DNA from: a virus
Lineage: Duplodnaviria > Caudoviricetes
Strand: one strand, 5' to 3'
IMG/VR virus record: IMGVR_UViG_3300037420_001819
Coordinates: 1-63,338 of that record
Length of the DNA stretch: 63,338 nucleotides
Below the pieces are notes generated by a model. It was not told the DNA's origin, made no database searches, and saw only the letters and a program-made list of their open reading frames with translations. A program made the position numbers and the translations under genes. Shown piece by piece: positions 2,427 to 59,461 of the stretch. How positions within the stretch are numbered: the stretch's first letter is position 1; each line of letters starts with the position of its first letter.

Positions 2427-3118
2427 CCGCCGCCCGCAAGATCACCCCCCGCGGCCAGGGCCGCACCCTGCGCGCCCGCGCCGACGCCGTCGCCGAGGCG
2501 TGCTCCGGCTCCTGGGGCGGCACGGCCGAGGCCGTGGACAAGCTGATCCACGAGTCGATGCACGTCTACGGCTGGCGCCCGGCGCGCGCCGCCCTGCTCT
2601 ACGCGCTGGCCGATCTGGCGCGCCCGGTCGACTACGGCGAGGAGGAGCCGATGTGGATGTCGGGCCCCGAGTTCGCCCGCTGGCGCGCCGAGATCAAGCT
2701 GGTCGCCAAGGCCCGCAAGCAGGCGATGAAGGCGCAGGACTTTCTCGGCGTGTCGGACTTCCAGGTCCGCCAGATGGAGAAGACCGGCGCGCCGAAGTGG
2801 ATCGCGCTGGCCTGCGCCCACGCCCTGTTCGGCCACGACCTGCCGGTTCCGGCCGACGACGTCGACGCCTTCCGCGAATGGTACGACGCCCGCTTCCGGG
2901 CGGTCGACCGCGTCGCCGCCTGGCTCGGCGTCGGCCACAAGTGGCTGAGCTGCCGGATGAGCGGGTTCGAGATGGTCGGCGGCCAGCGCGCCGAGCGCAG
3001 CCCGAGCGCCGGGCTGATCCGCGCCTGCGACTGGCTGTGGCGCATGGGGCCGTACTGTCCCTACGGCCCGCTGCCGCCGGTCGAGCTGTGGCCCGGGCAG
3101 GGGGAGTTGCCGCGGTGA
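2423..3118 (+). CDS. putative HTH DNA-binding protein (two HTH-like segments); carries DYGEEEP
   Basis: ATG 2423 overlaps the previous stop; AQDFLGVSDFQVRQME...PKWIALAC and VAAWLGVGHKWL...PSAGLIRAC resemble XRE-type HTH repeats. Confidence 0.6.
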   Translation: MTAARKITPRGQGRTLRARADAVAEACSGSWGGTAEAVDKLIHESMHVYGWRPARAALLYALADLARPVDYGEEEPMWMSGPEFARWRAEIKLVAKARKQAMKAQDFLGVSDFQVRQMEKTGAPKWIALACAHALFGHDLPVPADDVDAFREWYDARFRAVDRVAAWLGVGHKWLSCRMSGFEMVGGQRAERSPSAGLIRACDWLWRMGPYCPYGPLPPVELWPGQGELPR

Positions 3119-3285
3119 CGCGCGCCCTGCCCTACATCGCGCCGGGCGAGCGCGCGGACGGCGGCCCCGCCGACGAGGCCGAGCACTTCTTCATCTGTCG
3201 GTGCGGGCAGGCGGCGGACATGCGCGACCTCGGCGAGGTGTTCCGCCATGAGGAGCCGGGCCATGAAGCCCGGAAACCGTCGTGA
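3115..3285 (+). CDS. small Cys/His protein
   Basis: GTGA overlap with the previous gene; HFFICRCGQAADMRDLGEVFRHEEPGH. Confidence 0.6.
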   Translation: MTRALPYIAPGERADGGPADEAEHFFICRCGQAADMRDLGEVFRHEEPGHEARKPS

Positions 3286-3482
3286 CCGCCGCCATGCACG
3301 CCACGCCCGGCGCCCACACCGCCCCGAAACTCGAGCCGGTGCTGGGCCACGGCGGCTACCGGCTGATGTGGACCCGCTACCGCTTCGACCGCGCCGGCGA
3401 GAAGGAATGGGAGGCGGAACCGAGCGCCGACCGCACCGTCTACCCGACCCTGGCGGCGGCGCTGGCCGCCCTCCCCGCCTGA
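3282..3482 (+). CDS. hypothetical protein
   Basis: 66 aa ORF coupled by GTGA overlap. Confidence 0.6.
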   Translation: MTAAMHATPGAHTAPKLEPVLGHGGYRLMWTRYRFDRAGEKEWEAEPSADRTVYPTLAAALAALPA

Positions 3483-3484
3483 CC

Positions 3485-3667
3485 ATGAGCGAGGCGGCCG
3501 AGCGGGCGGCGATCGAGACGCTGGCCATCCAACTCTGGCTCGGCGATCACTATCAGGCTCGCGGCCGCGCATGGAGAGAAGCGCCCCGCTGGGTGCGCGA
3601 ACGCTACCGGGCCTGGGCCCACCTGATCGCCCTCGGGCACGAGCCCTCAGACTGGACGAAAAAATGA
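3485..3667 (+). CDS. hypothetical protein
   Basis: MSEAAERAAIETLA... frame filling the gap; stop overlaps the next ATG. Confidence 0.6.
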   Translation: MSEAAERAAIETLAIQLWLGDHYQARGRAWREAPRWVRERYRAWAHLIALGHEPSDWTKK

Positions 3668-5352
3668 ACGAACCGACCGACACGACCGCCCCGGGCCTGC
3701 GCGACCAGATGGTTCGCCTCGGCTACAGCGTCCACCAGCGTTCCAGCCACGGCCCCGGCCCGGCGTTCGACTACGACGCCCCGTGGAAGGGCCAGATGGA
3801 GACCCGCCATTTCAAGTCCGAGGAGGAGGCCTGGGCCGACGCCGAGCGGCGGTTCCTTAGCGAGGTGGACCGCGCCCGCAAGGTGCTGGCCGTGGTCGAC
3901 GCCCCCGCTCTGATAGGGGGACGGGAGAAGGTGGCGAACGCCGCACGTCGGCTGCAAGAGCAGATCGACGACTTCGATCGTGACGTTGCTGACGAACTGG
4001 AGAGCGAAGGCGAGCGCGCCGACCTGTGGGACGACATCGACGTCAGCGTGAAAGACCTCCGCACAGTTCTCTCCGCCCTCGCGCAGCCCTCGGAGGCTGG
4101 CGGGTTGGAAGCCCTGCGGGAGAAGGTGGCGCGGATCATCGAACCGAGCGCGTTCGAGGACGAGACGCCGCACCACCAGCGCGTATATCGGAACATGAGC
4201 CTCGCCGAAGCCCGCGCCGACGCACTCGCCAAGGCCGACGCTATCGCCGCCCTCTCGTCGGCCAAGCCCGGGACGGTGGGCGGGGAGATCGACGCGAGCC
4301 CGATCATAAACGCGGCGGAGGAGTATCTCCGCAACGCCCTCTCGCCCGGGACGGATGATTTTGCGGCCCGAGCCGTCCCGGTCCAAGAGCACCCGGCCGA
4401 AGAGGCTCTTCTTGCCCGCTGGTGCCGCCAGCGCGCCATGCTGGAACGGGAGCGCGGGGCTATGGACGACGCCTCGCGGTTCGATGTGCTTGCGGCTCTC
4501 GCATCAAACCCCGCCCTCCCGCCGCACGGACCCGCGCAGGGCTTGGGCAGCGGCTGGCGGCCCGCGTCCGAACAACCCGAGCCCGGGCGGAGGATCATCG
4601 CGCCGTACAACGACGGCAGCGGCGCGCGCCTGTTCTACGTCCACGATGGCGGCGTGATCGACGACGGCGGCGACGCGTTCGGGCTCGGCTACATCGCTGA
4701 GCAGTTCGACACGTGGGCCTACCTGCCCGCGGACGTGAAGCTGTGGTGCGAGGTCCGGGGCGGCGACGACGCCTTCACGTTCCCCGCCACGCCGGAACCG
4801 TCCAGCACGGACACCGAGAGCGCGCCGAAGCCGGGTGAACTCCGCCTGTTCGACGGTCAACTCTGCCGCTTCATCGAGCGCGAGCTTGAAGGCGACAAGT
4901 GGGAAGTGATCGGACTGTTCCCCGCCCCTGGCTCGAACACCCCCGCCGGCCTCCACCAGCAGGACGAACCGGCGGGCGAGGCTGCGACAGGCGATCTGCT
5001 GGAAACGCTCCGGAGGGCCGCCTACTACCTCGACTGGGCGATGGACCCAAACCCGCAATTCACTGTGGCTGATCGGCAGACTATCACCAACTTTGTCGGT
5101 GAAGCTCGCTCCGCCATCACCAAAGCCGAAGCCACCCTCGCCCAATCCGCCGGGGAGGGGGAGAAGCTGCGGGAGGCGGCGGCGCGCGCGATCGGCTACC
5201 TGCTCTGCCTGTCCGAGAACATGACAGTCCACGGCGCGGATATGGTCATCGGCCCATGCGCGGACCCGGCCGTCATCGCAGACGATCTAGCGCGCGCCCT
5301 CGCCTCCCCCGATCAGGCTGCGGTCGTTCCGGGCGGGGAGGGGGAGCGATGA
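3664..5352 (+). CDS. mosaic multi-domain hypothetical phage protein
   Basis: ATG 3664 (MNEPTDTT); 562 aa of short modules with low-complexity linkers; more A/T at third codon positions than neighbours. Confidence 0.7.
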   Translation: MNEPTDTTAPGLRDQMVRLGYSVHQRSSHGPGPAFDYDAPWKGQMETRHFKSEEEAWADAERRFLSEVDRARKVLAVVDAPALIGGREKVANAARRLQEQIDDFDRDVADELESEGERADLWDDIDVSVKDLRTVLSALAQPSEAGGLEALREKVARIIEPSAFEDETPHHQRVYRNMSLAEARADALAKADAIAALSSAKPGTVGGEIDASPIINAAEEYLRNALSPGTDDFAARAVPVQEHPAEEALLARWCRQRAMLERERGAMDDASRFDVLAALASNPALPPHGPAQGLGSGWRPASEQPEPGRRIIAPYNDGSGARLFYVHDGGVIDDGGDAFGLGYIAEQFDTWAYLPADVKLWCEVRGGDDAFTFPATPEPSSTDTESAPKPGELRLFDGQLCRFIERELEGDKWEVIGLFPAPGSNTPAGLHQQDEPAGEAATGDLLETLRRAAYYLDWAMDPNPQFTVADRQTITNFVGEARSAITKAEATLAQSAGEGEKLREAAARAIGYLLCLSENMTVHGADMVIGPCADPAVIADDLARALASPDQAAVVPGGEGER

Positions 5353-5702
5353 AAGTGCAAGTCGGCATGGCTGACCTAACCCCCCTCTCGGAACGGGTGG
5401 AAGGGGCTGGCGGGCCAGATCGGGAACTGGACCGCGAAGTATGGGCCGCTCTGGTCGCCAATCCCCCCGCCAGCCTCGTACACGTCGGACGCATTGAGGT
5501 CCCCGCCTACACCGCCTCCCTCGATAGCGCCCTCGGGCTGGTCGAGCGGGTGCTGCCGGGGTGGGTCGGGATGGTTTCCTTCGGCCCCGGCGTTCAAACG
5601 GCGGACCTAATGAGGCTGTCCGACGCGAAGGACGCGCTCGGGGAAGGCAAAACCCCCGCCCTCGCCGTCTGCGCCGCCCTGCTGAAAGCCCTCCGCCCGT
5701 GA
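5349..5702 (+). CDS. hypothetical protein (phage ABA-sandwich-like)
   Basis: GPDRELDREV...PAYTASLDSALGLVERVLPGW...TPALAVCAALLKA pattern common in alphaproteobacterial phages. Confidence 0.65.
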   Translation: MKVQVGMADLTPLSERVEGAGGPDRELDREVWAALVANPPASLVHVGRIEVPAYTASLDSALGLVERVLPGWVGMVSFGPGVQTADLMRLSDAKDALGEGKTPALAVCAALLKALRP

Positions 5703-5992
5703 CCCCGGCGATGGGCGAGGTGCTGGACGCGATCCGGCGGATCCACGCCGCCGGCCGCAAGCCGACGGTGCGCGCGATCGGCGCGCTGGCCGGGCTCGGC
5801 GTCGGCCGCACCCACGACCTGGTGATGGATTTGATCGAGGCCGGGCGGGTCGGGCGGGTCGACGGCGTGCTGACGCCGTTGGACAGCCCGGAGGCGCGCG
5901 CCTACGCCCTGATGCGCGACGCCATCCGGCGCGGCCTGACCCTGACGCCCGAGGCGATGCGCCGGGCGCTGGTGGTGGACGAGGCGGCGTAG
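5699..5992 (+). CDS. winged-HTH (LexA N-terminal-like) DNA-binding protein
   Basis: EVLDAIRRIHAAGRKPTVRAIGALAGLGVGRTHDLVMDLIEAGRV resembles the LexA-type wHTH; GTGA overlap. Confidence 0.6.
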   Translation: MTPAMGEVLDAIRRIHAAGRKPTVRAIGALAGLGVGRTHDLVMDLIEAGRVGRVDGVLTPLDSPEARAYALMRDAIRRGLTLTPEAMRRALVVDEAA

Positions 5993-6089
5993 ATGGATCA
6001 GGAGTCCGTGTCCCGGCTCGACGACATGCTGGACGTTTTGTGGTGGTTGGCGTGGCGCCGCTGGCGCCGCTGAGAAGGGGAGGAGACCC

Positions 6090-6332
6090 ATGAAGCTGTT
6101 GCTGAAGTGCGCCCTCGGGTTCGCCGCCGGCCTGGTGGCCGTGTTGGCGGTCGGGCTCTGGTACGAGAAACACGGCCCGACGCCGACCGAGCGGATCGCG
6201 CGGGCCTGCGCCGACCGTTACCCCGGGGCCGCGGCGCGCGAGCGGTGCCGCCTGGAGCTCGAGTTGGAATACGGCGACCGGCTCGAGCGGGACCGGCGCC
6301 GCGATCTCGAGCGCAGCGCCGGCCTGTACTGA
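6090..6332 (+). CDS. membrane-anchored hypothetical protein
   Basis: GGAGGAG RBS; N-terminal hydrophobic helix. Confidence 0.7.
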   Translation: MKLLLKCALGFAAGLVAVLAVGLWYEKHGPTPTERIARACADRYPGAAARERCRLELELEYGDRLERDRRRDLERSAGLY

Positions 6333-6424
6333 TTTCGGCGGCTTCGGCCGACCGGATCGACGGGCGGGCGCGCCCCGAACGCGTTTCCATGACGGACGGC
6401 CCGCAGATGGGTCGCCGCCCGTCG

Positions 6425-6463
6425 AACGGCCCCGGAGGGTGATCCGGGGCCGTTTGCTTTGTT
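6425..6463. terminator. intrinsic terminator between convergent operons
   Basis: Stem AACGGCCCCGGA/TCCGGGGCCGTT with a 6-nt loop, followed by TGCTTTGTT on +. Confidence 0.75.
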
Positions 6464-6633
6464 CAGTCGACCACAAGGCCTTCGGCGGCGTCGTCGGGCA
6501 TGGTTTCCGGCTCGCCGACCCAGACCGCGTCGCCGTCGCACTCCGGGCAGGTCGGCGCCCCGCCGCCGCGTTCGATCGCGTGGAAATCCTCGCCGCATGG
6601 CGCGCAGCGCGCCGGTCCGATCAGAGCCGTCAT
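6463..6633 (-). CDS. small zinc-ribbon protein (not in the ORF track)
   Basis: Hand translation MTALIGPARCAPCGEDFHAIERGGGAPTCPECDGDAVW...GLVVD*, 56 aa, CxxC...CxxC; ATG overlaps the upstream stop. Confidence 0.65.
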   Translation of the reverse strand: MTALIGPARCAPCGEDFHAIERGGGAPTCPECDGDAVWVGEPETMPDDAAEGLVVD

Positions 6634-7328
6634 TCCCCGTAGTCCTTTCCTTCCTCGTCCCGTCCGGCGTGCTCGCGCAGCCTGGCGGCCATCATCTGCG
6701 GCGTCACACCGAACGCCGGGCGGTGCGCCTCCGGCACCTTCCGCCGCGCCATCAGCTCGGGCAATTCCTTCATGCCCCTGGCGATCATGGCGCGCTCCGC
6801 CTCGGTCACCACCGGCTTCGACGCCGCCTGCGCCTGCAGCGCCCGCTTGATCCGGTACTCGGCCATCCGGAGCTTCACGGCGTAGGGCTCGGCCAGTTCG
6901 TTGATCTCGCCCGGCGACGGAAAGTACGACCCCTTGGCGGTGCGCAGGAACTCGTCGACGCCGTCCTTCAGCGCCGCGGCGGGCAAGGCGTCCAGCTTCT
7001 CCAGGAACAGCTGCATGAAGTTGCGTTGCAGCGCCGCCGCCTCGGGACCGGTGCCGAAGTCGGGCAGCTTGCGCAGCAGCATCAGCGGCTGGACCGCGGC
7101 GTAGGCCTCCTCCCGGGTCGCGGGCCGGATCATCGCCTGCAACTGCGGCAGCAACCGGGCGGCGTCCTGACGCAGCGCCGGGGTCGAGGCGATGCGGTTC
7201 ACGATCGCGTCGCGCTGCTCAGCCGTAGTCGTCGCCTTCGTCGCCAGAGCCCACAAAGGCCCGGTGGAAACTGCCGATGTCGTCGGCGCGAGAGCGCGCC
7301 CCCCTTCCAAAGCTAGTTCCTGCGCCAT
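6630..7328 (-). CDS. putative replication accessory protein (helicase loader/inhibitor position); ends in DYGE
   Basis: Strong ACAGGAGG RBS; lies directly after the initiator; LDALPAAALKDGVDEFLR...YFPSPGEI pattern seen in phage loader-like proteins. Confidence 0.55.
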   Translation of the reverse strand: MAQELALEGGRALAPTTSAVSTGPLWALATKATTTAEQRDAIVNRIASTPALRQDAARLLPQLQAMIRPATREEAYAAVQPLMLLRKLPDFGTGPEAAALQRNFMQLFLEKLDALPAAALKDGVDEFLRTAKGSYFPSPGEINELAEPYAVKLRMAEYRIKRALQAQAASKPVVTEAERAMIARGMKELPELMARRKVPEAHRPAFGVTPQMMAARLREHAGRDEEGKDYGE

Positions 7329-8304
7329 TTCCGCCTCCTGTGCTGGCGTAACGCCCTTCGATCAATCTCTGAAAACTCGACGACTGCAACAGAAAATCGA
7401 GGTGCATCTTGAAGGGGCCGTCGCGGCCGGGCCGCCGTCCCATCAGAAAATCACTCTCGGTCACCTGCTTCAGCGCCTGCATCCATCCGACCAGGCCCTT
7501 GGAGCTACGCAGCCGGGCCCTCAGTTTCTTGCGGCGGTCGTCGGTCAGTTTCTCGGCGACCGACCAGCCATGCTCGCGGGCCGCCTCGTTGTAGAGGTCG
7601 AACGCCTGCCGCACCTCGTCGATCCGGGCCGGAACGAGCGCCAGGTCCGCGGCGTGCCGCGCGCCGACGGTCACCACCCCCACCATCTCGGGCTCCTCGC
7701 CGTAGTCGGGGCCTTCGGGAACCGGAGCAGCGTCCGGCGCGTTCCCGACCTGAACATGGGGCGGCGAAGCCGACGAGTCCGCGTCAGCGGACTTATGATC
7801 TTCTGTTGTGTCTTGTCCTGTTATGTCTTGTGTGGCGATTTCCCCGGGGGACACGACCCCCGTTCCCCGGGGATCGTCGCCGTCTTCCCCAGGGGAGCCG
7901 CGCTTGCGGCGCTTCTTTTCCCGCTCCCGGCGGCGCCGGTCCTGCAGGGTCGACCACGTCTCGACGGCGATCTCGGCCAGCGTCGGGTGATACCAGCGGC
8001 CGTCGGCGCACAGCACCCACGGCCCCATCACCTCGGCCTTCACGGCCAGCCAGCCGGACAGGTCTCGCCGGCCGAACCCGGCCGCCACTGACAGGGCGAT
8101 GTCGTCGTCCGGCAGCGAGGCCGCCGGGACCTGCTCGTAGGCCTCGCACCACAGCTCGACGCTGATGGCCTTGGCCTGGTCGGACGCCTTCAGCCACCAG
8201 GACGACCGGCGCAGGCGCTTGTGGTGCAGCGGGAACCACGCCATCGACCGCAGATCGCAGTCTTCCGGCGTCATCGGGGCGGGTAGGGCGAGCGCTGTGT
8301 TCAT
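7219..8304 (-). CDS. phage replication initiator, DUF1376/YdaU-like
   Basis: N-term LPAPMTPEDCDLRSMAWFPLH...LWCEAYEQVPAASLPDDD...DGRWYHP (DUF1376-like); C-term FLMG...LDFLLQSSSFQRLIEGRY typical of phage replication proteins. Confidence 0.75.
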   Translation of the reverse strand: MNTALALPAPMTPEDCDLRSMAWFPLHHKRLRRSSWWLKASDQAKAISVELWCEAYEQVPAASLPDDDIALSVAAGFGRRDLSGWLAVKAEVMGPWVLCADGRWYHPTLAEIAVETWSTLQDRRRREREKKRRKRGSPGEDGDDPRGTGVVSPGEIATQDITGQDTTEDHKSADADSSASPPHVQVGNAPDAAPVPEGPDYGEEPEMVGVVTVGARHAADLALVPARIDEVRQAFDLYNEAAREHGWSVAEKLTDDRRKKLRARLRSSKGLVGWMQALKQVTESDFLMGRRPGRDGPFKMHLDFLLQSSSFQRLIEGRYASTGGGNGAGTSFGRGARSRADDIGSFHRAFVGSGDEGDDYG

Positions 8305-8364
8305 AACACGCTGCCGTACCGGGAGTCGCCTGCTGCGCGACTACTATGGCGCACGAAGACGCCG

Positions 8365-8379
8365 CGGGTTATATACCCG
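8365..8379. promoter_or_regulatory. palindrome in the AT-richer gap upstream of the initiator gene (possible operator)
   Basis: CGGGT-TATAT-ACCCG. Confidence 0.35.
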
Positions 8380-8514
8380 TCTCGCATGGCCTGTTCCTTT
8401 TCGGTGGGTGGCCGTGATTGTCAGTTCCGGGCGGTCCTGTTGGCGCAGGTCCGCCCGATCTGTTTAAGGGCCGGCGCTATCGTCTAGCAACCGCGCCTGA
8501 TCGTATCTCCTCAG

Positions 8515-11575: not shown

Positions 11576-11639
11576 TACGAACTCCCCCGACTTGGAAACG
11601 AACCCGGCGCCGCCCTGTGTCCGGCGCCGGGGTTAAGGA

Positions 11640-12350
11640 TCAGTTGACGGCCGCGCCCTTGCGGGCCCGGGGCTTCTTCGCCCCCAGCGCCGCCGCCGCC
11701 CTGTCGATCTCGGCCTGCTCCTTGGCGCGTTCCTCGGCCAGGCTTGGAGTCAGCGGCACGACGTTGGACGGCTCCTCGCCGTAGTCGCCGCCCTCGGCGT
11801 CGCCCAGCTGGTGCGGCGAGGCGCCCGGCGGGGTGCCCGGCTGCAGCCGGTCGGCCTCGCTCTGGACGGTGTCGGCCTTCAGCGCCTCGGCGGCGGCCTC
11901 GGCCAGCGCCTCGGCGCGGGCCTTGTCGCCCTCGCCCCAGCCCTCCATCCACAGCTGGACCTGCGCCGGGCTCAGCGACGGCGGCGGCGACGCCTTCAGC
12001 CCCTTCAGGCCGGCGAAGTTGCCCGCCCAGCGCACGTCCTCGGTGGCGCCGGTCGGCTGCGCCTCGCTGAACAGGTCGAACTGGGTGCCGACCTTGATGT
12101 TCACAAAGCCGAGGTACTTCAGCTTGCGGGTGAAGTAGGTGCGGATCTCGCCGATGGTCCAGCCCAGCATCTTGCGGACCTGGTCGAGGTCGCCGAGCTC
12201 GATGTTCTGCGCCTTGAACTTCTTGCGGTTGCGGCTGCGCCGGGCCTTGATCGCGTCCAGGTCGGCGTCGTCCTGCTCGGCGATCGCCACCGCCTTGAGG
12301 AAGTCTTCTCGGGTCGGGCCGTTGTGGCCGTCGCCTGCGGGATCGCTCAT
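11640..12350 (-). CDS. GapR/DUF2312-like DNA-binding protein with C-terminal extension
   Basis: GHNG start, coiled helix, then RKKFKAQNIELGDLDQVRKM like GapR homologs; contains QFDLF and DYGEEP. Confidence 0.55.
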   Translation of the reverse strand: MSDPAGDGHNGPTREDFLKAVAIAEQDDADLDAIKARRSRNRKKFKAQNIELGDLDQVRKMLGWTIGEIRTYFTRKLKYLGFVNIKVGTQFDLFSEAQPTGATEDVRWAGNFAGLKGLKASPPPSLSPAQVQLWMEGWGEGDKARAEALAEAAAEALKADTVQSEADRLQPGTPPGASPHQLGDAEGGDYGEEPSNVVPLTPSLAEERAKEQAEIDRAAAALGAKKPRARKGAAVN

Positions 12351-15209: not shown

Positions 15210-16062
15210 AGAAGCCTACGACGATCTGTGCCGCGCCGAGTCCTACGAGGACTACGACTACGGCGAGGGGCCCGACTACGGGGACCCGTTCCCCTTGGCG
15301 GCCCCCGCGGCCACGATCGGCCACAACCAGCCCCCCTCGTTCGAGGAGGAGATCCGCGCCGAGCACGCCGCGGTGTTCCGGGCGGTGGCCGACCTCGAGG
15401 CCGCCTACGACAAGCTGCCTGCGGCGGTCGGCTCGGAGGCCGATCTGGCCCTGACCTCCAAGTTCGTCGTCGATCTCGGCGCGGTCGTGAAGAAGGTCGA
15501 CAAGGCGCACAAGGACGCCAAGGCGCCGCTGAAGGAGAAGGTCGACGTGATCGACGGCCTGTTCCTGTCCAAGGGCCTGAAGGGGCGGCTGGAGGCGTGG
15601 AACGCCGCGGTCCGGCGCCGCAACGACGCCTGGCAGACCGAGCAGAACCGCCTGCGCCGCATCGCCGCCGAGGAGGAGGCCAAACGGCTGCGCGAGGCCG
15701 AGGCCGCCCGCATCGCCGAGGCAGAGGCGCTGGCGGCGCAAGGGCAGCACCGCGTCGCCGAGGTGGTCGAGGCGCAGGCCGTGCACCTGGCCGAGGCGGC
15801 GCAGGCGGTGGCCCAGACCGCCGAGGCGGCGGTGAAGGACGTGGTGCGCACCACCACCGGCGCCGGCGTCACCGTCGGCGGCCGCACGGTCTGGGAGTTC
15901 GAGATCGAGGACGCCGCCAAGATCGACCTCAACCTGCTGCGCAGCGTGATCCTCGACCACGAGCTCGAGGGCTTCGTGTCGCGCTTCGTCAACCGCGGCG
16001 GCCAGGCCCTGCCCGGCGTCCGCATCTACGAGACGGTGAAGGCGACCTACGGCCGCCGGTGA
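15199..16062 (+). CDS. coiled-coil recombination-region protein; N-terminus carries DYGE and DYGD
   Basis: IGHNQPP, long coiled coil, RTVWEFEIED...LPGVRIYE C-terminus typical of phage proteins next to recT; GGAGG RBS. Confidence 0.75.
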   Translation: MPGEEAYDDLCRAESYEDYDYGEGPDYGDPFPLAAPAATIGHNQPPSFEEEIRAEHAAVFRAVADLEAAYDKLPAAVGSEADLALTSKFVVDLGAVVKKVDKAHKDAKAPLKEKVDVIDGLFLSKGLKGRLEAWNAAVRRRNDAWQTEQNRLRRIAAEEEAKRLREAEAARIAEAEALAAQGQHRVAEVVEAQAVHLAEAAQAVAQTAEAAVKDVVRTTTGAGVTVGGRTVWEFEIEDAAKIDLNLLRSVILDHELEGFVSRFVNRGGQALPGVRIYETVKATYGRR

Positions 16063-16094
16063 CGTCGCAGAAAACACACAGGAACCGCATCATC

Positions 16095-16471: not shown

Positions 16472-18625
16472 ATGGACGGTAACGCCGCCGCCACCACCCG
16501 CACCGCCGCTCCGGCCATGGAGCTCGCCGAGGACCGCGTCGACGGCCAGGACGTCGTCGTCTACGAGGGCGGCGGCCAGACCGTCGCCCAGCAGCGCAAG
16601 GCCCGCACCGGCGCCCTGATCGCCGCCTTCGACAAGCGCCGGGCCGATTACGAGACCTTCCTGAACGCCTACGGCATCAGTTTCGAGGTGTTCACCGCCG
16701 TCATCAAGCAGGCGCTGGTGAAGCAGCCGGACCTGCTCGACTGTTCGGCCGGGTCGGTCCTGCAGGCGGCGCTGATGTGCGCCAAGGACGGGCTGGTCCC
16801 CGACGGCAAACGGGCGGCGATCACCAAGTTCGGCAACGTCGCCACCTACCAGCCCATGTACGAGGGCATGCTGGAGATCGCCTACGACGTCCGGGACGCT
16901 GCGGGCAACATGGTCTACCGGGACGTCGAGGTCGACGTCGTCTACAAGGGCGAGGAGGAGCTGTTCGAGTACCGGCGCGGCGACGACGGCTACATCCGCT
17001 TCAGCCCGCCGCTCGACCGCGACATCACCGCCGAGATCGCCGGGGCCTACTGCATCATCCGCACCACCAACGGCGGCGTGTTCCGCGAGGTGATCGGCGG
17101 CAAGGAACTGAAGAAGATCCGCGCCGTCTCCAAGGCCAAGAAAGGCCCGAACGTCGACTGGCCGGCCCAGATGGCCAAGAAGGCGCCGCTGCGCCGCCTG
17201 CTGAAGATCACCCCGAAGAACGCCCGCCTGCAGCAGGCGATGACCCACGACGAGAACTCGTACCTCACCGAGGTTCCCGGGCCGGAGTCCGCGGCGCCGC
17301 AGATCGGCCACGACCAGCTGTTCGACGACAAGGCCGTGCACGTCGCCGCCGGGGGCGAGACCGTGGTCGAGGCGGAGGTCGAGCCGGTCGACGCCCTGAG
17401 CCACGCCCGCGCGCTGCTGATGGAGTGCGAGAGCGCCGAGCAGCTGGAGTCGACCATCGGCTACATCAACGCGGCGCCGGAGTTCGCCGGGCTGAGCGCC
17501 GAGGATCGCGAGAGCCTGGCCAAGAACGCGCAGGTCATGGCCCAGCGCTTCGGCGCGGCCGATATTACGGCGCCGACCGACCACGAAATCGCCGCCCCCG
17601 AGAAGCCGAGGAAGCCGCGCAAGTCGAGGGCCGAAAAGATCGCCCACCCGGACACCGAGTCCGGCGGGACCGGCGTGGCGGCCGACGCCGTGCACGAACC
17701 CGAGGCGGCGGTCGACCCGGTGACCGGCGAAGTCGTCGACGACCCTGCCGCACTCGGCGGCTCCGGCGGCTCGTATGTGCGGGCGGTCGCTCCGGTGATC
17801 GAAACCGTGGCCGACGACTTCATGGCCGGGCCGGACACGCCGCCGGTGATCACCGACGCCTCGTTCGAGGAGATCGACGAGACTCCGGCGAGGGTCGGCG
17901 GGCCGAAGGTCGAGGCCAAGGCCGAGCCCAAGGTGACCCCGGCCGAGGCCGCGGCGACGGGCGACTTCTACATGCTGTCCACCGACACGCCGAACGCCAG
18001 CAAGCAACGCCCCTACTACGACGAGAAGGGACAGATCCGCGGCTACGCGCTCGACAGCCAGGGCATCCGGGTGCTGGACGCCCACCCGAACCAGCCGCAG
18101 GCCGCGCCCGCGGCGTCGGACCGGCCCTACACCCTGTCGGGCGACCCCTGGGAGAACGGGATCAAGCCCGCCTACATCGCCGGCGTCGCTCGGGCCAAGG
18201 CCGGCAAGAACAACGCCCTGCCGGAGTTCGACAGCCACGAGGCGGCCGCCTCCCACTTCGCCCAGCCCGAGATCCGGCGGAACCCGGAGGACCGGGTCGA
18301 CCCGGCGCAGGCCGCGCCGCCGGAACAGTCGAAGGCCGAGGCGGCGGACGAGTACGGCGCCGGAGAGACCGCCGTGCTGCGCGGCAAGTTCCGGCCGAGC
18401 GACCCGGCGAAGGAGTACACCGACCCGGCGCTGTGGATGGCCGACATGCTGAACAAGCTGCAGACCGTCTCCGAGCAGGGGCGGCCCATGTGGTTCGCCG
18501 ACAACCTCCAGTTCATCCGCGAGGCCCACGCGGTCGCGCCGGAGAAGGCCATGCGCATCCTCGCCGTCGCCGCCGCCCACAAGCTGCCCGGCGCCGCCGA
18601 GGCCGTCCAGGATCTCGGCCGGTGA
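16472..18625 (+). CDS. recT: RecT-family ssDNA annealing protein with very long C-terminal extension
   Basis: LLDCSAGSVLQAALMCAKDGLVPDG, YQPMYEGM, GAYC, WPAQMAKKAPLRRLLKITP in the first ~270 aa; 717 aa total. Confidence 0.85.
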   Translation: MDGNAAATTRTAAPAMELAEDRVDGQDVVVYEGGGQTVAQQRKARTGALIAAFDKRRADYETFLNAYGISFEVFTAVIKQALVKQPDLLDCSAGSVLQAALMCAKDGLVPDGKRAAITKFGNVATYQPMYEGMLEIAYDVRDAAGNMVYRDVEVDVVYKGEEELFEYRRGDDGYIRFSPPLDRDITAEIAGAYCIIRTTNGGVFREVIGGKELKKIRAVSKAKKGPNVDWPAQMAKKAPLRRLLKITPKNARLQQAMTHDENSYLTEVPGPESAAPQIGHDQLFDDKAVHVAAGGETVVEAEVEPVDALSHARALLMECESAEQLESTIGYINAAPEFAGLSAEDRESLAKNAQVMAQRFGAADITAPTDHEIAAPEKPRKPRKSRAEKIAHPDTESGGTGVAADAVHEPEAAVDPVTGEVVDDPAALGGSGGSYVRAVAPVIETVADDFMAGPDTPPVITDASFEEIDETPARVGGPKVEAKAEPKVTPAEAAATGDFYMLSTDTPNASKQRPYYDEKGQIRGYALDSQGIRVLDAHPNQPQAAPAASDRPYTLSGDPWENGIKPAYIAGVARAKAGKNNALPEFDSHEAAASHFAQPEIRRNPEDRVDPAQAAPPEQSKAEAADEYGAGETAVLRGKFRPSDPAKEYTDPALWMADMLNKLQTVSEQGRPMWFADNLQFIREAHAVAPEKAMRILAVAAAHKLPGAAEAVQDLGR

Positions 18626-18909
18626 TCGTCCACACCTACCTGAGCGCCGACGCCCCGGCGCCGTACCGGGCGGTGGCGCTGATCACCACGCCGACCGGCA
18701 AGAGCGGCGCCGAACTGCACCCGGTCATCTTCCGGGCGCCGGACGAGGCCACGGCCCGCGCCAACGCCGAGGCGTGGTGGGCCGCCGAGCTCGACCGGCT
18801 CGGGGCGAAAAAGGCTCCCAAGGGGCGGCGTCCGGCCGCCCCGAAGGAGGCCGGCGGCGACTACGGCGAGGCCGCCGACTACGGCGAAGGCCCGGACTAC
18901 GGGGAGTGA
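18622..18909 (+). CDS. small protein ending in three tandem DYGE motifs
   Basis: GTGA overlap; ...GGDYGEAADYGEGPDYGE*. Confidence 0.7.
   Translation: MIVHTYLSADAPAPYRAVALITTPTGKSGAELHPVIFRAPDEATARANAEAWWAAELDRLGAKKAPKGRRPAAPKEAGGDYGEAADYGEGPDYGE
18859..18906 (+). repeat. 3 copies of GACTACGG(C/G)GA(G/A) at an 18-bp period
   Basis: GACTACGGCGAG 18859, GACTACGGCGAA 18877, GACTACGGGGAG 18895. Confidence 0.9.
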
Positions 18910-45596: not shown

Positions 45597-46048
45597 GCGG
45601 CGTCGCCGTAGTTGGCCTTGTCGGCGGCGTGCTCGGAGACCTGCTCGGCGATCCAGCGGGTGTTCGACGCGCGCGCGATCGCCTGCTTGTCGTCGTCGGA
45701 CGGGGTCTGCAGCGCCTCGCCGCCGAAGTTCTCGAAATCGACGGCCAGCACCGAAAAGCTCTGCGGGAGGTCGTCGCGGATCCGCTTCAGCGCCAGTTCG
45801 AGGCGCTGCGCCTCGGACTTGACCCGGCGGTTGTCGGCGGCGCCGCGGCGCGCCTGCTGGTCGGTCAGGTTCTGGAACGCCTCCGACAGCACCGAGCGGA
45901 CCCGGATGCGCAGCGGCTTGCTCCGGTCGGTCTTGCCGTCGACCTGCGCGAACAGCGGTTCGCCGTCGGTCGGGTCGCGAAGGTGGCACCAGGTCCCGGT
46001 CTCGATCAGATCGGGCTTCAGGATCTCGGCAACGGATCCGAGCTTCAT
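45575..46048 (-). CDS. tail assembly chaperone (gpG-like)
   Basis: Between tube and tape measure; GGGAG RBS; slippery heptamer near the 3' end. Confidence 0.8.
   Translation of the reverse strand: MKLGSVAEILKPDLIETGTWCHLRDPTDGEPLFAQVDGKTDRSKPLRIRVRSVLSEAFQNLTDQQARRGAADNRRVKSEAQRLELALKRIRDDLPQSFSVLAVDFENFGGEALQTPSDDDKQAIARASNTRWIAEQVSEHAADKANYGDAAGNPAAA
45590..45596 (-). other. programmed -1 frameshift site G GGA AAC
   Basis: X XXY YYZ heptamer in frame just before the chaperone stop; the -1 frame is open to 45153. Confidence 0.8.
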
Positions 46049-47182: not shown

Positions 47183-47719
47183 TCAGACCAGGCGGACGCT
47201 GAAGCCGGGGGCGTTGACCTGAACCAGGGCCGGGGCCAGCGCCTGCGCCTCCTCGGTCGACAGGCCGTGGATGATCACGTCCGTCGCGCCGAGCTTGTGG
47301 GCGAGGTCGACCGCGGCGAACACCGGGCTGGCCGGGCCGACGTTGAGCGCGCCGGGGTGCTCGGACAGGCCGGAGGTGCCGCCCTGTTCGAAGTCGCGGC
47401 CCAGGGTGTAGACCGGCGCGGCGCCGACGGCGCCGAAGTCGATCGCGGCGTCGAAGCGCAGGTAGACGTCGCCCTTCGGGTAGGTCGCCTTGACGTGCGG
47501 CGGCAGCGCCGACGGGTGGCGGTGGCCGTAGTCGCCCTCGGCGGCCGGGTCCTTGTCCAGGCGCGCGCGGGTCTGCGGCACGATCACCTTGCGGCCGTCG
47601 GCCAGGGTCGGCGGGTAGCTGGAGCCGGCGGCGACCAGCACCTTGGCGAAGGTGGTCTCGGCGGCGGGGCTCAGATCGACCAGCGGGGTCTCCGCGGTCT
47701 CGGTGGACTTCGTCTTCAT
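47183..47719 (-). CDS. hypothetical protein, possibly a degenerate DUF115/GT-like Rossmann domain
   Basis: MKTKSTE...; KVLVAAGSS and SPVFAAVDLAHKLGATDVIIHGL. Confidence 0.5.
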   Translation of the reverse strand: MKTKSTETAETPLVDLSPAAETTFAKVLVAAGSSYPPTLADGRKVIVPQTRARLDKDPAAEGDYGHRHPSALPPHVKATYPKGDVYLRFDAAIDFGAVGAAPVYTLGRDFEQGGTSGLSEHPGALNVGPASPVFAAVDLAHKLGATDVIIHGLSTEEAQALAPALVQVNAPGFSVRLV

Positions 47720-49401: not shown

Positions 49402-50095
49402 CTTGCCCCTCCGGCCCTTGCTCAGCCGTAGAGGCGCCCGAATCGGCGCCCGGGGTCAATTCGTCGCCGTAATCGGCGTCCGACGAAACGTCGTCGGCCG
49501 TCTCGCCTTCCGTCCCGCCTTCGCCGGACGTCTGGCCTTCCGCTACGTCCTCGCCGGCGGTCTCCTCGACCGGGGCGGGCGGCGGCGGGACCTGCTTGGC
49601 CTGTTCCACCGCCGCGGCGGTGGCGTCGAGCCCGTCGAGGAACAGGTCGACTCGCTTCAGGCCGTTGATCTGCCCGCCCGGGTTCAGCCGGCCGCCCTGC
49701 GCGTCGTAGACGTCGTAGTGGCGGAAGTTGCCCTTGCGGGTCTCGACCAGGAAGCGGCCGCGGTGCGGCGTCGCCCCGGCCGGGAGCCCGGCGGCGGGCG
49801 AAGCCGGAGCGCCTTTCGGCAGCTCCAGCCCCATCGCCTTCAGGCCGTCGACGGTGAAGCCCCTCGGAACGCGCCCCTCGGGCAGGGCACGAAGACACGC
49901 GGCCAGGTTCTCTTGGGTGAGTTCCCCGATCATGCGCGCCTCGTACATCTGCCGCGCCCTTCGCTCCCCGAGCGCGAGCTGACGCCACGGGAAGGCGTCG
50001 CCCGGTCCGAACGAGCGGCCCGAAACCGAGGCGATCGGCTTCATGGCGATCATCTGGGCGCCGGTGTTGAAGGGGAGGAGAGCGTTCCGTTTCAT
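49370..50095 (-). CDS. hypothetical post-capsid protein with acidic tail containing DYGD
   Basis: 241 aa starting 3 nt after the capsid stop; acidic low-complexity C-terminus. Confidence 0.7.
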   Translation of the reverse strand: MKRNALLPFNTGAQMIAMKPIASVSGRSFGPGDAFPWRQLALGERRARQMYEARMIGELTQENLAACLRALPEGRVPRGFTVDGLKAMGLELPKGAPASPAAGLPAGATPHRGRFLVETRKGNFRHYDVYDAQGGRLNPGGQINGLKRVDLFLDGLDATAAAVEQAKQVPPPPAPVEETAGEDVAEGQTSGEGGTEGETADDVSSDADYGDELTPGADSGASTAEQGPEGQDGGDVQRGPE

Positions 50096-52481: not shown

Positions 52482-53603
52482 CTACTCCTTGATGGGCTCG
52501 ACGAAGGCGTCGCAGCCGATGGACAGTTCGAAGTCGGACGCCTTGGCCACGTCCCAGACGTCGTCGTCGGCACAGTGGAAGCCGAGCAGGGCGCCCTCGA
52601 ACTCGATCTTGCGCACCACCGCGGCCTCGGCCTTGGTCAGCGCCCCGGCGGCCTCCAGCGTGTCGGCGATGCCGGCCCAGATCTCGGGGCGGAACACCAG
52701 GCCCTCGACGATCTCGGATTTCTTCGCGCCGGCGTGGTCGAACTTGCCCGCCCGGGAGCCCTTGATGATCTCGTGGGTCAGGGTCAGCAGGGCGTCGGTG
52801 GTGATCTCGTCGCGGTGGCTGTCGACGACGTTCTCGCCGTTGATCTTCGACACGCTGGCCCAGCCGTAGACCATCCGCTCCTCGTCGCCGGAGCGCAGCA
52901 CCCGCGAGATGTTCGGTTCCGGCGTCTGCGGCTGCTGGCCCCTGGTCAGGCGCTCGAGCAGGCCGTCGTGGTTGGCGAACAGCCGGTCGGCCGACTTCTG
53001 CAGCAGCGGCGCGCCCTGCCCCATCAGCAGCAGGGTCTGCCGGTCGATCGGGTCGATCCCCTTCAGCACCAGGTCCGGCTCGGCCGCGACGGCGGCGGCG
53101 GCGAGGTCGGGCCCGGCGGCGAACGCGGCGCCCTTCTCGATCACCGCCTTCGCGTCCGGCGCGAACGGGGCGAACACCTCCGGGCCGAAGATCATCGACG
53201 GCGGCATCGCCGCCAGCGCCTCGTCGGAGACCTCGAACCCCTTGGCGTCGTAGGACAGGGTGACGTGCGGCCGGTACTCCGGCCAGTCCGACACCGCGCC
53301 CTGGCCGAGGAAGAACCAGTTCCGGTCGGTCAGGCACCAGTCCCAGAACAGGAAGGTCAGCACCGACTCGTCCAGCCCGAGGAAGCCGATCCGCCCCTCG
53401 GTCGAGTAGACCTGGACGGTGTGGCTCTGCGGCTTGACCTTCACGTCGGTCCGCGAGGCGATCACCGTGACGTGCATGTCGGCGGCCGCCACCGGGTTGG
53501 GGACGCCGTACTTCTCCGCCCACTTCGCCCAGGCGTCGGCGTTGAGCACCGGCCGGCTGACGTACAGCCCCGAACGCTTGGCGATGCGGTCGAAGATCTT
53601 CAT
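52482..53603 (-). CDS. fusion: 2H phosphoesterase (Acb1/57B-like) plus XkdF-like prohead protease
   Basis: N-term LYVSRPV...MHVTVIASR...EYRPHVTLSY (two HxT motifs); C-term ERMVYGWASV...VDSHRDEI...H...ELSIG. Confidence 0.8.
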   Translation of the reverse strand: MKIFDRIAKRSGLYVSRPVLNADAWAKWAEKYGVPNPVAAADMHVTVIASRTDVKVKPQSHTVQVYSTEGRIGFLGLDESVLTFLFWDWCLTDRNWFFLGQGAVSDWPEYRPHVTLSYDAKGFEVSDEALAAMPPSMIFGPEVFAPFAPDAKAVIEKGAAFAAGPDLAAAAVAAEPDLVLKGIDPIDRQTLLLMGQGAPLLQKSADRLFANHDGLLERLTRGQQPQTPEPNISRVLRSGDEERMVYGWASVSKINGENVVDSHRDEITTDALLTLTHEIIKGSRAGKFDHAGAKKSEIVEGLVFRPEIWAGIADTLEAAGALTKAEAAVVRKIEFEGALLGFHCADDDVWDVAKASDFELSIGCDAFVEPIKE

Positions 53604-57831: not shown

Positions 57832-58488
57832 TCACGCCGCCTCGGTCAGGATGCGGAGCGCGTCGCGCAGGTCGGCGTAGTGGACGCGGGCCTCGCCGCC
57901 CTTCGCCTGCTCGAGGTCGTCGCGCAGCCGGGCCAGCAGCACGGCCGACGGCCTCGGCGCCGGCTCCTTTTCGCCGCGCAGGTAGGACTCGAACCGGGCC
58001 GCCAAGCTGATCACGGCGCCGGCGTCCAATTCGGCCCCCAGCACCGCCAGCTCGAGCGCGCGGTCGCGCAGCTCGGCGTCGCGATCCTCGTCGTGAGCGC
58101 CGGTCTCCTCCTCGAGGACCTGGTGGGCCTCGGCGATGTCGGCGCAGGGCAGGACGAAGGCCGGGTCGAGCCGGGCGCGGTACGCCGCCGGCAGGTTTTC
58201 GTTCAGGCCCATCGGCACGCCTTCGACCTCTGGGAACTCGGCCTGCGGCTGGTGGTGCGCCTCGAACCACGCCGGGCCGACGAAGCGGATCCGGTCGCCG
58301 TCCAGCAGCAGGTAGTCGCCGGACTGCGGAACGATCTCGGTCAGCATGTCGGCTGTCACCGGCACGCGGACGCCGCCGTCCAGCACCACGGCGAACAGCG
58401 CCGGGCCGTCGTACTCGAGGCGGGTGACGCGGGCGGCGCGCACCGGGATGACCCGGTCGTAGAGCGGAAGGGTGTCGAGTTCGGCCAT
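57832..58488 (-). CDS. hypothetical protein
   Basis: 218 aa, ACAGGAGG RBS; PQSGDYLL...WFE. Confidence 0.75.
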   Translation of the reverse strand: MAELDTLPLYDRVIPVRAARVTRLEYDGPALFAVVLDGGVRVPVTADMLTEIVPQSGDYLLLDGDRIRFVGPAWFEAHHQPQAEFPEVEGVPMGLNENLPAAYRARLDPAFVLPCADIAEAHQVLEEETGAHDEDRDAELRDRALELAVLGAELDAGAVISLAARFESYLRGEKEPAPRPSAVLLARLRDDLEQAKGGEARVHYADLRDALRILTEAA

Positions 58489-58536
58489 GGGGGCCTCCTG
58501 TGCGTGGGAGGCCCAGCGGTACGGCGATTCGCGCGT

Positions 58537-58767
58537 CTACACCGACCGGGGGTAGATCGCCCGCCGCACGACCTGCAGCATCTCGCGGCGGATCCGCAGT
58601 TCCGGCACGCCGCCGCGGGCGACGACGATCTCCTCGAGGCCGCTGTGGAAAACCACGTCGCCGGGCATGTCGTCGTCGACCACCATCCACAGCACATGCG
58701 GCGCGCCGATCGGGCAGACCAGGTCGCCGAGCGCGAGGCGGGAGTAGGCGATCACCCGAGCGCCCAT
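58537..58767 (-). CDS. hypothetical protein
   Basis: 76 aa, LGDLVCPIGAPHVLWMV. Confidence 0.5.
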   Translation of the reverse strand: MGARVIAYSRLALGDLVCPIGAPHVLWMVVDDDMPGDVVFHSGLEEIVVARGGVPELRIRREMLQVVRRAIYPRSV

Positions 58768-58843
58768 TTGATCAGACCCGCGACGCCGAACAGAACCAGG
58801 CCGAGGCCGAGGCCGAACCCGAAGGCGACCCCGGCCCAGAACA

Positions 58844-59461
58844 TCAGCCGAACGCCCGCTTCAGCAGGTCGTCGGCGGCCTCGCCGTAGTCGGGGCCGAG
58901 GTCCGCCTCAACGGTCGGGGCCGGTTTTCCGGGCGCGGCGGCCGCCGGGGCCGGCAGGCCCCGCTCCATCAGGCGCGCGGTCAGGTCGGCGAGGCCGGCC
59001 GTGGCTTGCGGGTTCTCAGGGCTCGGCCGGCCGGGCCGCCCCTTGGTCTCGGCGGGCGCGCCCTCGGTCGCCTGCAGACGCGACGTCTCGCGGTCGACGA
59101 TCTTCCAGCGCAGGTCGGCGGCCTTGGTCATCATGGCGGCGTCGTTGGTGCAGCGCGCCTGCCGCCACATCTGGTTGGCCATCCACTTGATCTCGCCGAA
59201 CAGCGGATCCTTCTCGAGCTCGGCCTTCTCGTCCTGCAAGTCCTTCATCCTCGCCTGGAACTCGGCGGTCCGTTCGATGCGGATCCGGTACTGGCCGGAG
59301 CCGCCGTCGTCACGGTAGCCGGCGTGCCGCCAGGCGTCGGCCCGGGTGACGCCGTCGGCCATCAGCAGGGCGAACAGCTCGATCCGGGGGTTCTGGATCG
59401 CCCCGTCGGCGAGCCGCACCACCTTGGTTTCGAACAGTTCCTTGGCCGCCTTGCCCGCCAT
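58844..59461 (-). CDS. terminase small subunit-like protein; carries LGPDYGE
   Basis: NPRIELFALLMADGVTRADAWRHAGY HTH typical of TerS; upstream of terL on the same strand; start could be 59470. Confidence 0.65.
   Translation of the reverse strand: MAGKAAKELFETKVVRLADGAIQNPRIELFALLMADGVTRADAWRHAGYRDDGGSGQYRIRIERTAEFQARMKDLQDEKAELEKDPLFGEIKWMANQMWRQARCTNDAAMMTKAADLRWKIVDRETSRLQATEGAPAETKGRPGRPSPENPQATAGLADLTARLMERGLPAPAAAAPGKPAPTVEADLGPDYGEAADDLLKRAFG

Follow-up and report, generated by a model that had tools for sequence, protein, structure and literature searches.

A recurrent acidic tyrosine motif in eight proteins of a Sansa-like tailed phage, a candidate docking peptide

The locus and its motif-bearing genes

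The IMG/VR virus record IMGVR_UViG_3300037420_001819 (Duplodnaviria; Caudoviricetes) is a linear sequence of 63,338 bp, analysed here over its whole length (the window), in which a short peptide pattern, Asp-Tyr-Gly followed by Glu or Asp (DYG[ED]), recurs across the encoded proteins. The record has a CheckV completeness of 79% and a GC content of ~0.70. A codon-usage gene caller trained on the window yielded 100 genes (19,378 aa; 92% coding), mostly with a third-position GC content (GC3) of 0.85-0.99. Pfam and/or PHROG scans covered 50 of the 100 proteins, the remaining 50 being mostly small.

Among sequenced phages, Caulobacter phage Sansa (NC_047756) is the closest, and the window is syntenic with it across most modules: the capsid proteins are 35% and the large terminase subunits (TerL) 54% identical, and the genes for DnaN, RecT, ExoVIII, a RuvC-like protein and the head and tail are shared in order, at protein identities of 25-61%. 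Because Sansa is the closest phage, the replication initiator has its best cellular relatives in genomes of Caulobacterales (60% for Brevundimonas diminuta, over the N-terminal domain) and the closest solved structures to DnaN are bacterial beta clamps, the host is likely to be a high-GC Caulobacterales bacterium. The replication module has been exchanged between the two phages (window 3664-8274 versus Sansa 56-63 kb). Sansa encodes DnaB, a winged helix-turn-helix initiator, a primase and an SSB (protein binding single-stranded DNA), in place of which the window has a DUF1376/O-like initiator (g15), g14 and, at the position of the primase, the 562-aa g9. No helicase, primase or SSB was recognised among the window proteins scanned, nor was a polymerase gene recognised in the window. 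For g9, the largest early protein without annotation, there was no Pfam, PHROG or PDB match, and Atlas leads to DUF551 were sub-threshold.

Sequence of this phage is present in 10 soil or rhizosphere runs, 6 of which may be its source, and the same phage is also on record as a 72,753-nt contig, roughly 9 kb longer than the window. Beyond these 6, contigs of the phage, or of strains less than 1% different from it, occur in 4 further soil or rhizosphere runs, which belong to 4 studies, one example being a 3,244-nt piece with 3 differences.

A six-frame scan of the window recovered DYG[ED] 11 times, at every position given in the original prediction and always in the sense frame of long, high-GC3 called genes, with 6 copies on the plus and 5 on the minus strand. 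The carriers are 8 of the 100 proteins (g5, g14, g15, g22, g28, g31, g78 and g92). Their sites, together with a terminal variant in g15, are as follows; pLDDT stands for the predicted local distance difference test of the structural model of g15.

2630..2641, plus strand: DYGE in g5 (2423-3118, 231 aa, no family; ortholog of Sansa gp101), in the context RPVDYGEEEPMWM
6633..6644, minus strand: EGKDYGE and stop at the C-terminus of g14 (6630-7256, 208 aa), the gene directly downstream of the initiator
7696..7707, minus strand: EGPDYGEEP in the interdomain linker of the initiator g15 (7219-8274, 351 aa), with pLDDT <50 at residues 190-195
7222..7230, minus strand: EGDDYG and stop ending g15, a near-variant without the final acidic residue, in a tail (residues 313-351) with pLDDT <50
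11775..11786, minus strand: EGGDYGEEP in a linker of g22 (11640-12350, 236 aa; ortholog of Sansa gp076), disorder percentile 93
15256..15285, plus strand: two copies, spaced by 18 nt (YDYGEGPDYGDPF), within the tail at the N-terminus of g28 (15199-16062, 287 aa)
18859..18906, plus strand: three tandem copies with an 18-nt period (GGDYGEAADYGEGPDYGE and stop) ending g31 (18622-18909, 95 aa)
49463..49474, minus strand: DADYGDE within the acidic tail at the C-terminus of g78 (49370-50095, 241 aa; ortholog of Sansa gp028)
58880..58891, minus strand: LGPDYGEAADD near the C-terminus of g92 (58844-59461, 205 aa, no family)

Six of the 8 carriers fall among genes 3-36, the DNA-metabolism module (P = 0.02). 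In g15, Pfam and PHROG recognise a DUF1376 domain and an O/DnaD-like C-terminal domain, and its original label as a replication initiator stands. Several other labels first attached to the carriers fared less well: a "loader-like" g14 has only its lambda-P-like position in its favour, its weak match being to phrog_34007 (function unknown), and an "HTH" g5, a "GapR-like" g22 and a "TerS-like" g92 found no Pfam, PHROG-function or PDB support. The gene of g5 lies two genes past DnaN; g22 matches phrog_26995, of unknown function, and adjoins the RuvC-like resolvase; g28 matches phrog_10477, annotated "exonuclease"; the start of g31 overlaps the stop of the RecT gene g30 (717 aa); g78 follows the major capsid gene; and the Sansa ortholog of g92 is gp008 and not the small terminase annotated there. 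The carriers have no similarity to one another outside short low-complexity stretches centred on the motif regions.

Enrichment over chance and specificity to this phage

From amino acid composition alone, 0.29 copies of DYG[ED] are expected in the 100 proteins, against the 11 observed, in agreement with the original estimate of fewer than one chance copy. The reading that acidic, Gly/Pro-rich linkers of a high-GC genome yield DYGE by accident draws some support from local composition, which lifts the expectation slightly, from 0.29 to 0.50 copies when 12-aa blocks are shuffled. However, across 1000 shuffles each of whole proteins, 30-aa blocks and 12-aa blocks (means of 0.30, 0.38 and 0.50 copies), the maxima were 3, 4 and 4, and none came near 11 copies or 8 proteins. 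When k-mers were ranked by their spread across proteins with no motif chosen beforehand, DYGE was the most enriched 4-mer of the proteome (7 proteins against 0.14 expected; Bonferroni-corrected P = 3e-5), the runners-up GPDY and PDYG overlapped it, and the top 5-mer was GPDYG (Bonferroni 2.5e-3), which is present in 4 proteins, matching the four occurrences first reported.

Comparison with other phages gave the same picture. In 80 IMG/VR loci around homologous initiators (GC 0.53-0.70; 1,993 called proteins; 374,298 aa), DYG[ED] occurs 4 times in all against 5.2 expected, a rate that would give 0.2 copies in this phage (Poisson P ~6e-16), and no 4-mer in any of these loci reached a Bonferroni value below 1e-2. 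Sansa has no DYG[ED] in 24,539 aa. Its own 4-mer PDDI (6 proteins, Bonferroni 0.05) was set aside as a comparable case, as it looked like helix-cap contexts in folded regions.

The genomes of the likely host order show no such enrichment either, which agrees with the original prediction. The DNA pattern GAYTAYGGNGA gave 76 matches against 81 for a reversed control in five Caulobacterales genomes (20.7 Mb), and 11 in the 63-kb window. Across 151 genomes of the order, the pattern for GPDYGE gave 5 matches against 6 control matches, and the 5 lie in ordinary coding sequence without an acidic tail or linker, or in short or low-GC3 frames. A pattern for proteins ending in DYGE gave 29 matches in 24 of the 151 genomes, about the level of the reversed control. 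Recurrent among them was GATTATGGCGAATAA, located not at a protein end but in a low-GC3, non-coding-looking conserved element; this element is ~70 nt long and occurs in at least 9 of the 151 genomes (loci L308-L312 and L314; order of G001).

Among viruses at large, GGNCCNGACTACGGNGAG was found in IMG/VR in 22 stretches on 22 contigs, one each, compared with three in the window, and a second GPDYGE copy is present on no other of the 2.9 million IMG/VR contigs. The tandem pattern DYG[ED]xxDYG[ED] gave 33 IMG/VR stretches, mostly low-complexity repeats, several of them in giant-virus bins, plus unrelated proteins; none had more than a local repeat. The tail of g31 found no match among phages by tblastn, possibly owing to the low-complexity filter. 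No description of a DYGE motif was found in the main texts of papers naming DYGE together with phage, or among the papers listed on short linear motifs, disorder and bacteriophage proteomes, which dealt with peptide phage display, eukaryotic viruses or disordered proteins in general. Collectively, these comparisons show a genuine and strong enrichment that is confined to this phage and is not an artefact of GC content or codon usage; an origin by chance or composition is effectively refuted.

Anatomy and context of the motif

Alignment of 12 sites (the 11 copies of DYG[ED] and the terminal DDYG of g15) gives the consensus E-G-[P/G/A]-D-Y-G-E-[E/G/A]-[P/A], in which Tyr is invariant (12/12). 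Glu at position -3 and Gly at position -2 are each present in 8 of the 12 sites, including the non-tandem sites of g14 and g22 and both sites of g15. Three of the 12 stand at the very end of their protein (P = 2e-4), terminating in YGE or YG, and two proteins (g28 and g31) carry tandem copies with an exact 18-nt period; Tandem Repeats Finder scores the array of g31 as 2.8 copies of period 18.

The sequence around the motif is acidic, with much Gly, Pro and Ala. A composition-based disorder scale puts 7 of the 11 DYG[ED] sites beyond the 80th percentile for the proteome, and of the 416 tyrosines in the proteome only 18 fall in top-decile disorder windows, 7 of these being DYG tyrosines. For g15, an AlphaFold2 model built with 11 sequences shows two confident domains (residues 1-125 and 220-310, pLDDT >90), with both sites in the low-confidence linker and tail. 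Several features expected of a short linear motif are seen here: a few fixed positions within 3-10 residues, unrelated carriers, recurrence above chance, and sites that the disorder scale and the g15 model place in disorder-like regions or termini. It is likely that DYG[ED] is a phage-specific, protein-level motif of termini and acidic, Pro/Gly-rich linkers.

All of the near-variants listed in the original prediction are also present; besides the terminal DDYG of g15, they are:

47525..47533, minus strand: EGDYGH in g73 (47183-47719; ortholog of Sansa gp033), disorder percentile 98
18350..18358, plus strand: DEYGAGE, residues 626-632, within the long extension at the C-terminus of RecT g30 (16472-18625)
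45602..45613, minus strand: ANYGD close to the C-terminus of g71 (45575-46048), which is orthologous to the tape-measure chaperone of Sansa

Apparent recent and repeated gain

Judged against the Sansa orthologs, the copies are lineage-specific insertions or extensions. The motif of g5 lies within an 8-residue insertion and that of g92 within a 15-residue C-terminal extension that the Sansa ortholog lacks, and the motifs of g22 and g78 fall in a linker or tail that is unalignable to Sansa, which has G-D-F where g22 has G-D-Y-G-E-E-P. The remaining four carriers have no Sansa ortholog and are located at the exchanged replication module. At closer range, members of the 90%-identity clusters keep every site even as the nearby tail varies (5 substitutions downstream of the motif in g22; A195D in g92). 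The Sansa orthologs and initiator homologs of up to 49% identity do not have the motif. The homologs of the initiator, which in a collection of 5.8 billion proteins reach only 45-49% identity, show loose echoes: acidic-aromatic ends in some (GDDSY, DDF and EDY, each followed by the stop) and one SDEYGD linker. Absent from Sansa and from the initiator homologs and kept in the 90%-identity clusters, the motif looks to have been acquired recently and repeatedly in one lineage.

Searches for relatives at other distances were made in several ways. By megablast, 20 kb of sequence matched GenBank phages in nothing but a C5-methylase segment, at 84% to Pseudanabaena phage Pan4. Near-identical records aside, no relative came from locus searches with one protein at a time, which used the initiator, capsid protein and RecT for IMG/VR and RecT for JGI metagenomes and GTDB genomes, and alignment searches reached distant loci only (initiator, at most 60% over the N-terminal domain; TerL, 54% for Sansa itself and then at most 47%). 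Word-indexed searches with g22 and g5 returned their own clusters only, a blank that reflects sensitivity and not absence, since a 37-42% identical Sansa ortholog exists. Over window positions 2000-20000, compared with contigs from 4 runs, none of the 40 variant places listed out of 190 falls in a motif codon, a comparison that at <1% divergence has no power.

Peptide, neutral repeat or nucleic-acid word

All 14 copies of the DNA word GACTACGG in the window read D-Y-G and are co-oriented with transcription, on both strands, and none lies in the 7.7% of the window that is non-coding. Occurrence irrespective of frame and between genes, as expected of a DNA-level site, is thus not what is seen, although codon bias weakens this comparison; the frame and intergenic counts came out as the original prediction anticipated, and they do not discriminate, for the very reason of codon bias of which it had warned. 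The codons are more informative. Synonymous variation had been reported and is seen: the motif uses GAC 10 times and GAT once, GGC 8 and GGG 3 times, and GAG 7, GAA 2 and GAC 2 times at the last position, in line with genome-wide usage (GAC, 10/11 versus 0.90; GGC and GGG, versus 0.73 and 0.18; GAG and GAA, versus 0.77 and 0.23). This suggests that no extra DNA-level constraint acts on the motif. The DNA flanks likewise differ between copies (GGCCCC, GGCGGC, GCCGCC, GGAAAG and CCGGTC).

A neutral by-product would take the form of a GC-rich unit of 12-18 nt (including GACTACGGCGAG) that arose once, was amplified by slippage and copied by short-homology recombination, and has no function. Its survival only where proteins tolerate insertions, in disordered tails and linkers, would fit the placement of the sites, and their position in insertions and extensions relative to Sansa, the exact 18-nt period of the tandem arrays, an identical 18-mer in g15 and g92, and the use of the minor codon CCC for the Pro before the motif (3/4, compared with 26% genome-wide) are all consistent with such copying. 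The phage also encodes RecT, an ExoVIII-like nuclease and two HNH nucleases, and no conservation extends beyond the 90%-identity cluster. However, frame-blind insertion should leave copies in other frames or in non-coding DNA, and all 14 copies of GACTACGG are in the D-Y-G frame; furthermore, the flanks differ, the synonymous sites vary as genome usage predicts, three copies stand exactly at C-termini, and no other of the 2.9 million IMG/VR contigs has even two copies. We consider neutral spread unlikely.

The same co-orientation of the 14 copies with transcription, on both strands, would be expected if the selected object were an RNA or DNA word, GACUACGG(C/G)GA, serving for instance as the site of an RNA-binding regulator or nuclease or as an internal ribosome-binding context, a word that fits into high-GC3 genes only as in-frame D-Y-G-E/D. 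Shine-Dalgarno-like words (GGGGAG, GGGGAA or GAGGAG) follow the Tyr codon and precede, by 3-10 nt, the starts of g13 and g32 and in-frame ATGs of g5 and g15, and the codons GGG GAA TGA of g14 overlap the start of g13. On the other hand, the word varies internally (GAT in g78; GGC/GGG; GAG/GAA/GAC) at genome-typical rates, it has no intergenic copy, and peptide near-variants with other DNA (EYGA, NYGD) occur in similar tails. The preference for E-G at positions -3 and -2 and the placement in termini and linkers are more naturally properties of a peptide, and a ribosome-binding site does not require D-Y. A nucleic-acid element as the selected object appears improbable. As the G-E(-E) codons form Shine-Dalgarno-like words before starts, the pattern may nevertheless be partly dual-coded at some sites.

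We note that the motif codons GGC GAG GAG stand 6-9 nt before an in-frame ATG in two genes, at Met197 of g15 and Met77 of g5, and that a database gene call of 155 aa starts at Met197 of g15, on a 2.6-kb contig that is perhaps simply truncated. Nested C-terminal isoforms of g15 and g5 are possible.

Candidate partners

If DYG[ED] is a docking peptide, the first candidate partner, and one put forward in the original prediction, is the phage's own sliding clamp:

635..1948, plus strand: phage DnaN, beta clamp, 437 aa, which carries no motif

Docking of the carriers to DnaN, as with the partners of T4 gp45, would suit the position of the clamp gene near carrier g5, the predominance of DNA-metabolism proteins among the carriers, and the fact that no canonical motif of the Q-x-x-L-x-F type stands out in the replication proteins. 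The sequence of DnaN, however, is that of an ordinary bacterial clamp: it keeps the canonical segments, including ATDGHR and the C-terminal MPLRV, which line the hydrophobic peptide pocket of the clamp, and in the PDB it comes closest to bacterial clamps (E = 5e-42). Clamp-binding peptides follow a hydrophobic consensus, Q-x-x-[L/M]-x-[F/L], or are of the Q-L-[S/D]-L-F type. The acidic E-G-x-D-Y-G-E does not fit it, and a regular-expression scan of the carriers found only a doubtful QVQLW in g22. Sansa, moreover, has an orthologous clamp (34% identity) and yet no motif. A co-fold of DnaN (alignment A3, 50 rows) with residues 56-95 of g31, run without controls, gave a score of 0.00 and a mark of 0.32 and counts neither way. 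The phage clamp is a poor candidate partner on this comparison, and a clamp-binding peptide is very unlikely.

The second candidate, a host hub that binds the same sequence natively, was not borne out, as no such ligands were seen in the 151 genomes of the likely host order. A ligand invented by the phage for a host surface is possible, and is made attractive by the apparent dependence of the phage on the helicase, primase and SSB of its host.

The third is an enzyme. The invariant Tyr (12/12 sites) might be the substrate of a single kinase, sulfotransferase, nucleotidyltransferase or endoprotease that co-regulates the carriers, and its acidic, disordered context with turn-forming Gly and Pro resembles classical sites of Tyr modification; a putative serine protease domain of the XkdF-like type is weakly recognised in g82 (E = 0.001). 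No kinase, sulfotransferase, Fic or similar Tyr-modifying domain was seen among the 50 of 100 proteins scanned (Pfam and/or PHROGs), so that the idea of a Tyr-modification tag gained no support, copies at the extreme C-terminus make little sense for cleavage, and the host genomes are without matching native substrates. A tag for modification or processing is, in our estimate, a minor possibility.

Relation to known peptide-hub systems

Wiring of many proteins to one hub by short peptides is well documented in cells, as for the SSB tip and the clamp-binding motif, and in phages T4 and T7 for two or three proteins. In T4, gp43, gp33 and gp55 share C-terminal peptides that bind the gp45 clamp. 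As in that system, unrelated proteins here carry one short peptide, which in T4 docks replication and late proteins to a phage-encoded hub. The T4 peptides, however, are hydrophobic and strictly C-terminal, whereas DYG[ED] is acidic with a single Tyr, mostly internal and tandem in two proteins, with a partner that is only presumed. The bacterial clamp-binding motif likewise occurs in disordered termini of many DNA-metabolism proteins, but it is hydrophobic, whereas the motif described here is acidic and the phage clamp looks canonical.

In composition, DYG[ED] is closer to two acidic tails. The C-terminal tip of SSB, D-D-D-I-P-F, is presented in passages of PMC10143822, PMC7290993 and PMC13489159 as the hub of the bacterial SSB interactome. 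Both combine an acidic run with one aromatic residue at a disordered tail and sequence-specific docking, which for DYG[ED] is predicted. The SSB system, however, consists of one tail with many partners, as opposed to many tails with presumably one partner, and the tip ends in P-F with a free carboxylate, whereas the carriers are not SSBs and have no SSB or OB family match. The ending [I/L]-P-F at the extreme C-terminus of an OB-fold SSB, by which such tips are recognised, is not found here, where 3 of 12 sites are terminal. In T7, the acidic tails of gp2.5 and gp4 carry their aromatic residue in the last position. These C-terminal tails bind T7 DNA polymerase, according to a passage of PMC12339929. 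As in T7, different phage replication proteins would share an acidic-aromatic tail for one presumed partner surface, although there are eight proteins instead of two, and no polymerase gene in the window.

Sansa, the closest sequenced relative, is syntenic and has the same DnaN, RecT, ExoVIII, RuvC-like, head and tail genes, but lacks DYG[ED] and encodes its own DnaB, primase and SSB. By its sequence, the motif belongs to none of the families of the SSB tip, the T7 tails and the T4 clamp peptides.

Other features of the window

Several further features touch on the carriers or their neighbours. The linker-coding part of g15 contains, at 7803-7831, an AT-rich 15-nt direct repeat (CTGTTGTGTCTTGT / CTGTTATGTCTTGT; 1.9 copies) that is unique in the window and could represent iterons of an origin inside the initiator gene, by analogy with lambda O. 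In RecT g30 (16472-18625, plus strand), the RecT domain ends near residue 360 and is followed by ~350 residues without a family match; the RecT of Sansa has 462 aa. An open reading frame of 418 aa (8515-9771, minus strand) encodes a C5-cytosine methylase, of which the gene caller kept only the 3' 156 codons. Its segment 9127-9404 (278 nt) is 84.5% identical in DNA to the methylase of phage Pan4 and has a much higher summed contig depth in soil runs, so that the methylase looks like a gene that many share.

In the head module, g82 (52482-53603, minus strand; ortholog of Sansa gp024) has an N-terminal Acb1-like domain (Pfam E = 8e-24), Acb1 being an anti-CBASS cyclic-nucleotide phosphodiesterase, and at its C-terminus the weak XkdF-like match mentioned above. 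The tail genes g63 (33659-35704), g67 (37265-39736) and g68 (43762-43849) contain long Gly- or Ala-rich triplet repeats (GCC/CCG arrays); g63 and g68 each have one DYGG, which is part of a Gly run and not the acidic motif.

A predicted docking code and its significance

Taken together, a short aromatic core, an acidic and disordered context, unrelated carriers of related function, terminal and tandem copies and a de novo origin lead us to read DYG[ED] as a predicted, convergently gained, protein-level docking motif, to which we assign a probability of about one half. What the analysis shows is the enrichment, the phage specificity, the disordered or terminal placement and the insertional origin, whereas binding, and what would be bound, is our inference. 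The original prediction of a tag shared by replication, recombination and packaging proteins stands in so far as enrichment, disorder, C-terminal placement and insertions point to a protein-level motif; no particular partner has been substantiated.

Several observations weigh against the docking reading. No binding partner emerged from the checks of the DnaN sequence, the host genomes or enzyme domains, and the host itself is known by inference only. The motif is missing from the nearest initiator homologs (45-49%), and no relative at intermediate distance was found in any collection searched. Owing to codon bias, exclusivity of frame and strand cannot separate a protein motif from an RNA or DNA motif, as GACTACGG in other frames needs rare codons (ACT, CTA, GTA or AGT) or a TAG stop, and several copies overlap Shine-Dalgarno-like GGGGAG or GAGGAG just upstream of start codons. 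Finally, the site of g5, at disorder percentile 65, lies in a less disordered context.

Under the docking reading, a single phage lineage would have gained the peptide repeatedly, by small insertions, tail extensions and an 18-nt tandem duplication, in disordered tails and linkers. One pocket on one common partner would receive the acidic, Tyr-centred peptide, and the initiator, the product of the adjacent gene, the RecT-associated proteins and two proteins of the head/packaging module would in this way all be brought to the same hub, with the tandem copies of g28 and g31 adding avidity. This partner could be a protein of the phage, perhaps one encoded in the ~9 kb that the record lacks, or a replisome or ssDNA-handling protein of the host, a hub that would be worth hijacking given that, unlike in Sansa, no helicase, primase or SSB of the phage's own was recognised. 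Carried to its full extent, and more tentatively, the scenario is that of a Sansa-like, temperate-looking phage of soil Caulobacterales in which a private 8-residue label in at least 8 proteins wires initiation, recombination and head/packaging functions to one hub, with g31 as a multivalent adaptor or competitor.

If true, this would be the broadest proteome-wide network of short linear motifs described in a phage, and one synthetic peptide would provide a handle for a hub central to the DNA metabolism of the phage, one that may be druggable or relevant to defence. A k-mer outlier confined to disordered regions, which here is unique in that no other IMG/VR contig has a second GPDYGE copy and none of the 80 loci a comparable 4-mer outlier, would serve as a signature for mining phage genomes for hidden interaction networks. 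More generally, the motif would show how fast viruses can evolve a private interaction code de novo in the disordered regions of their proteins.

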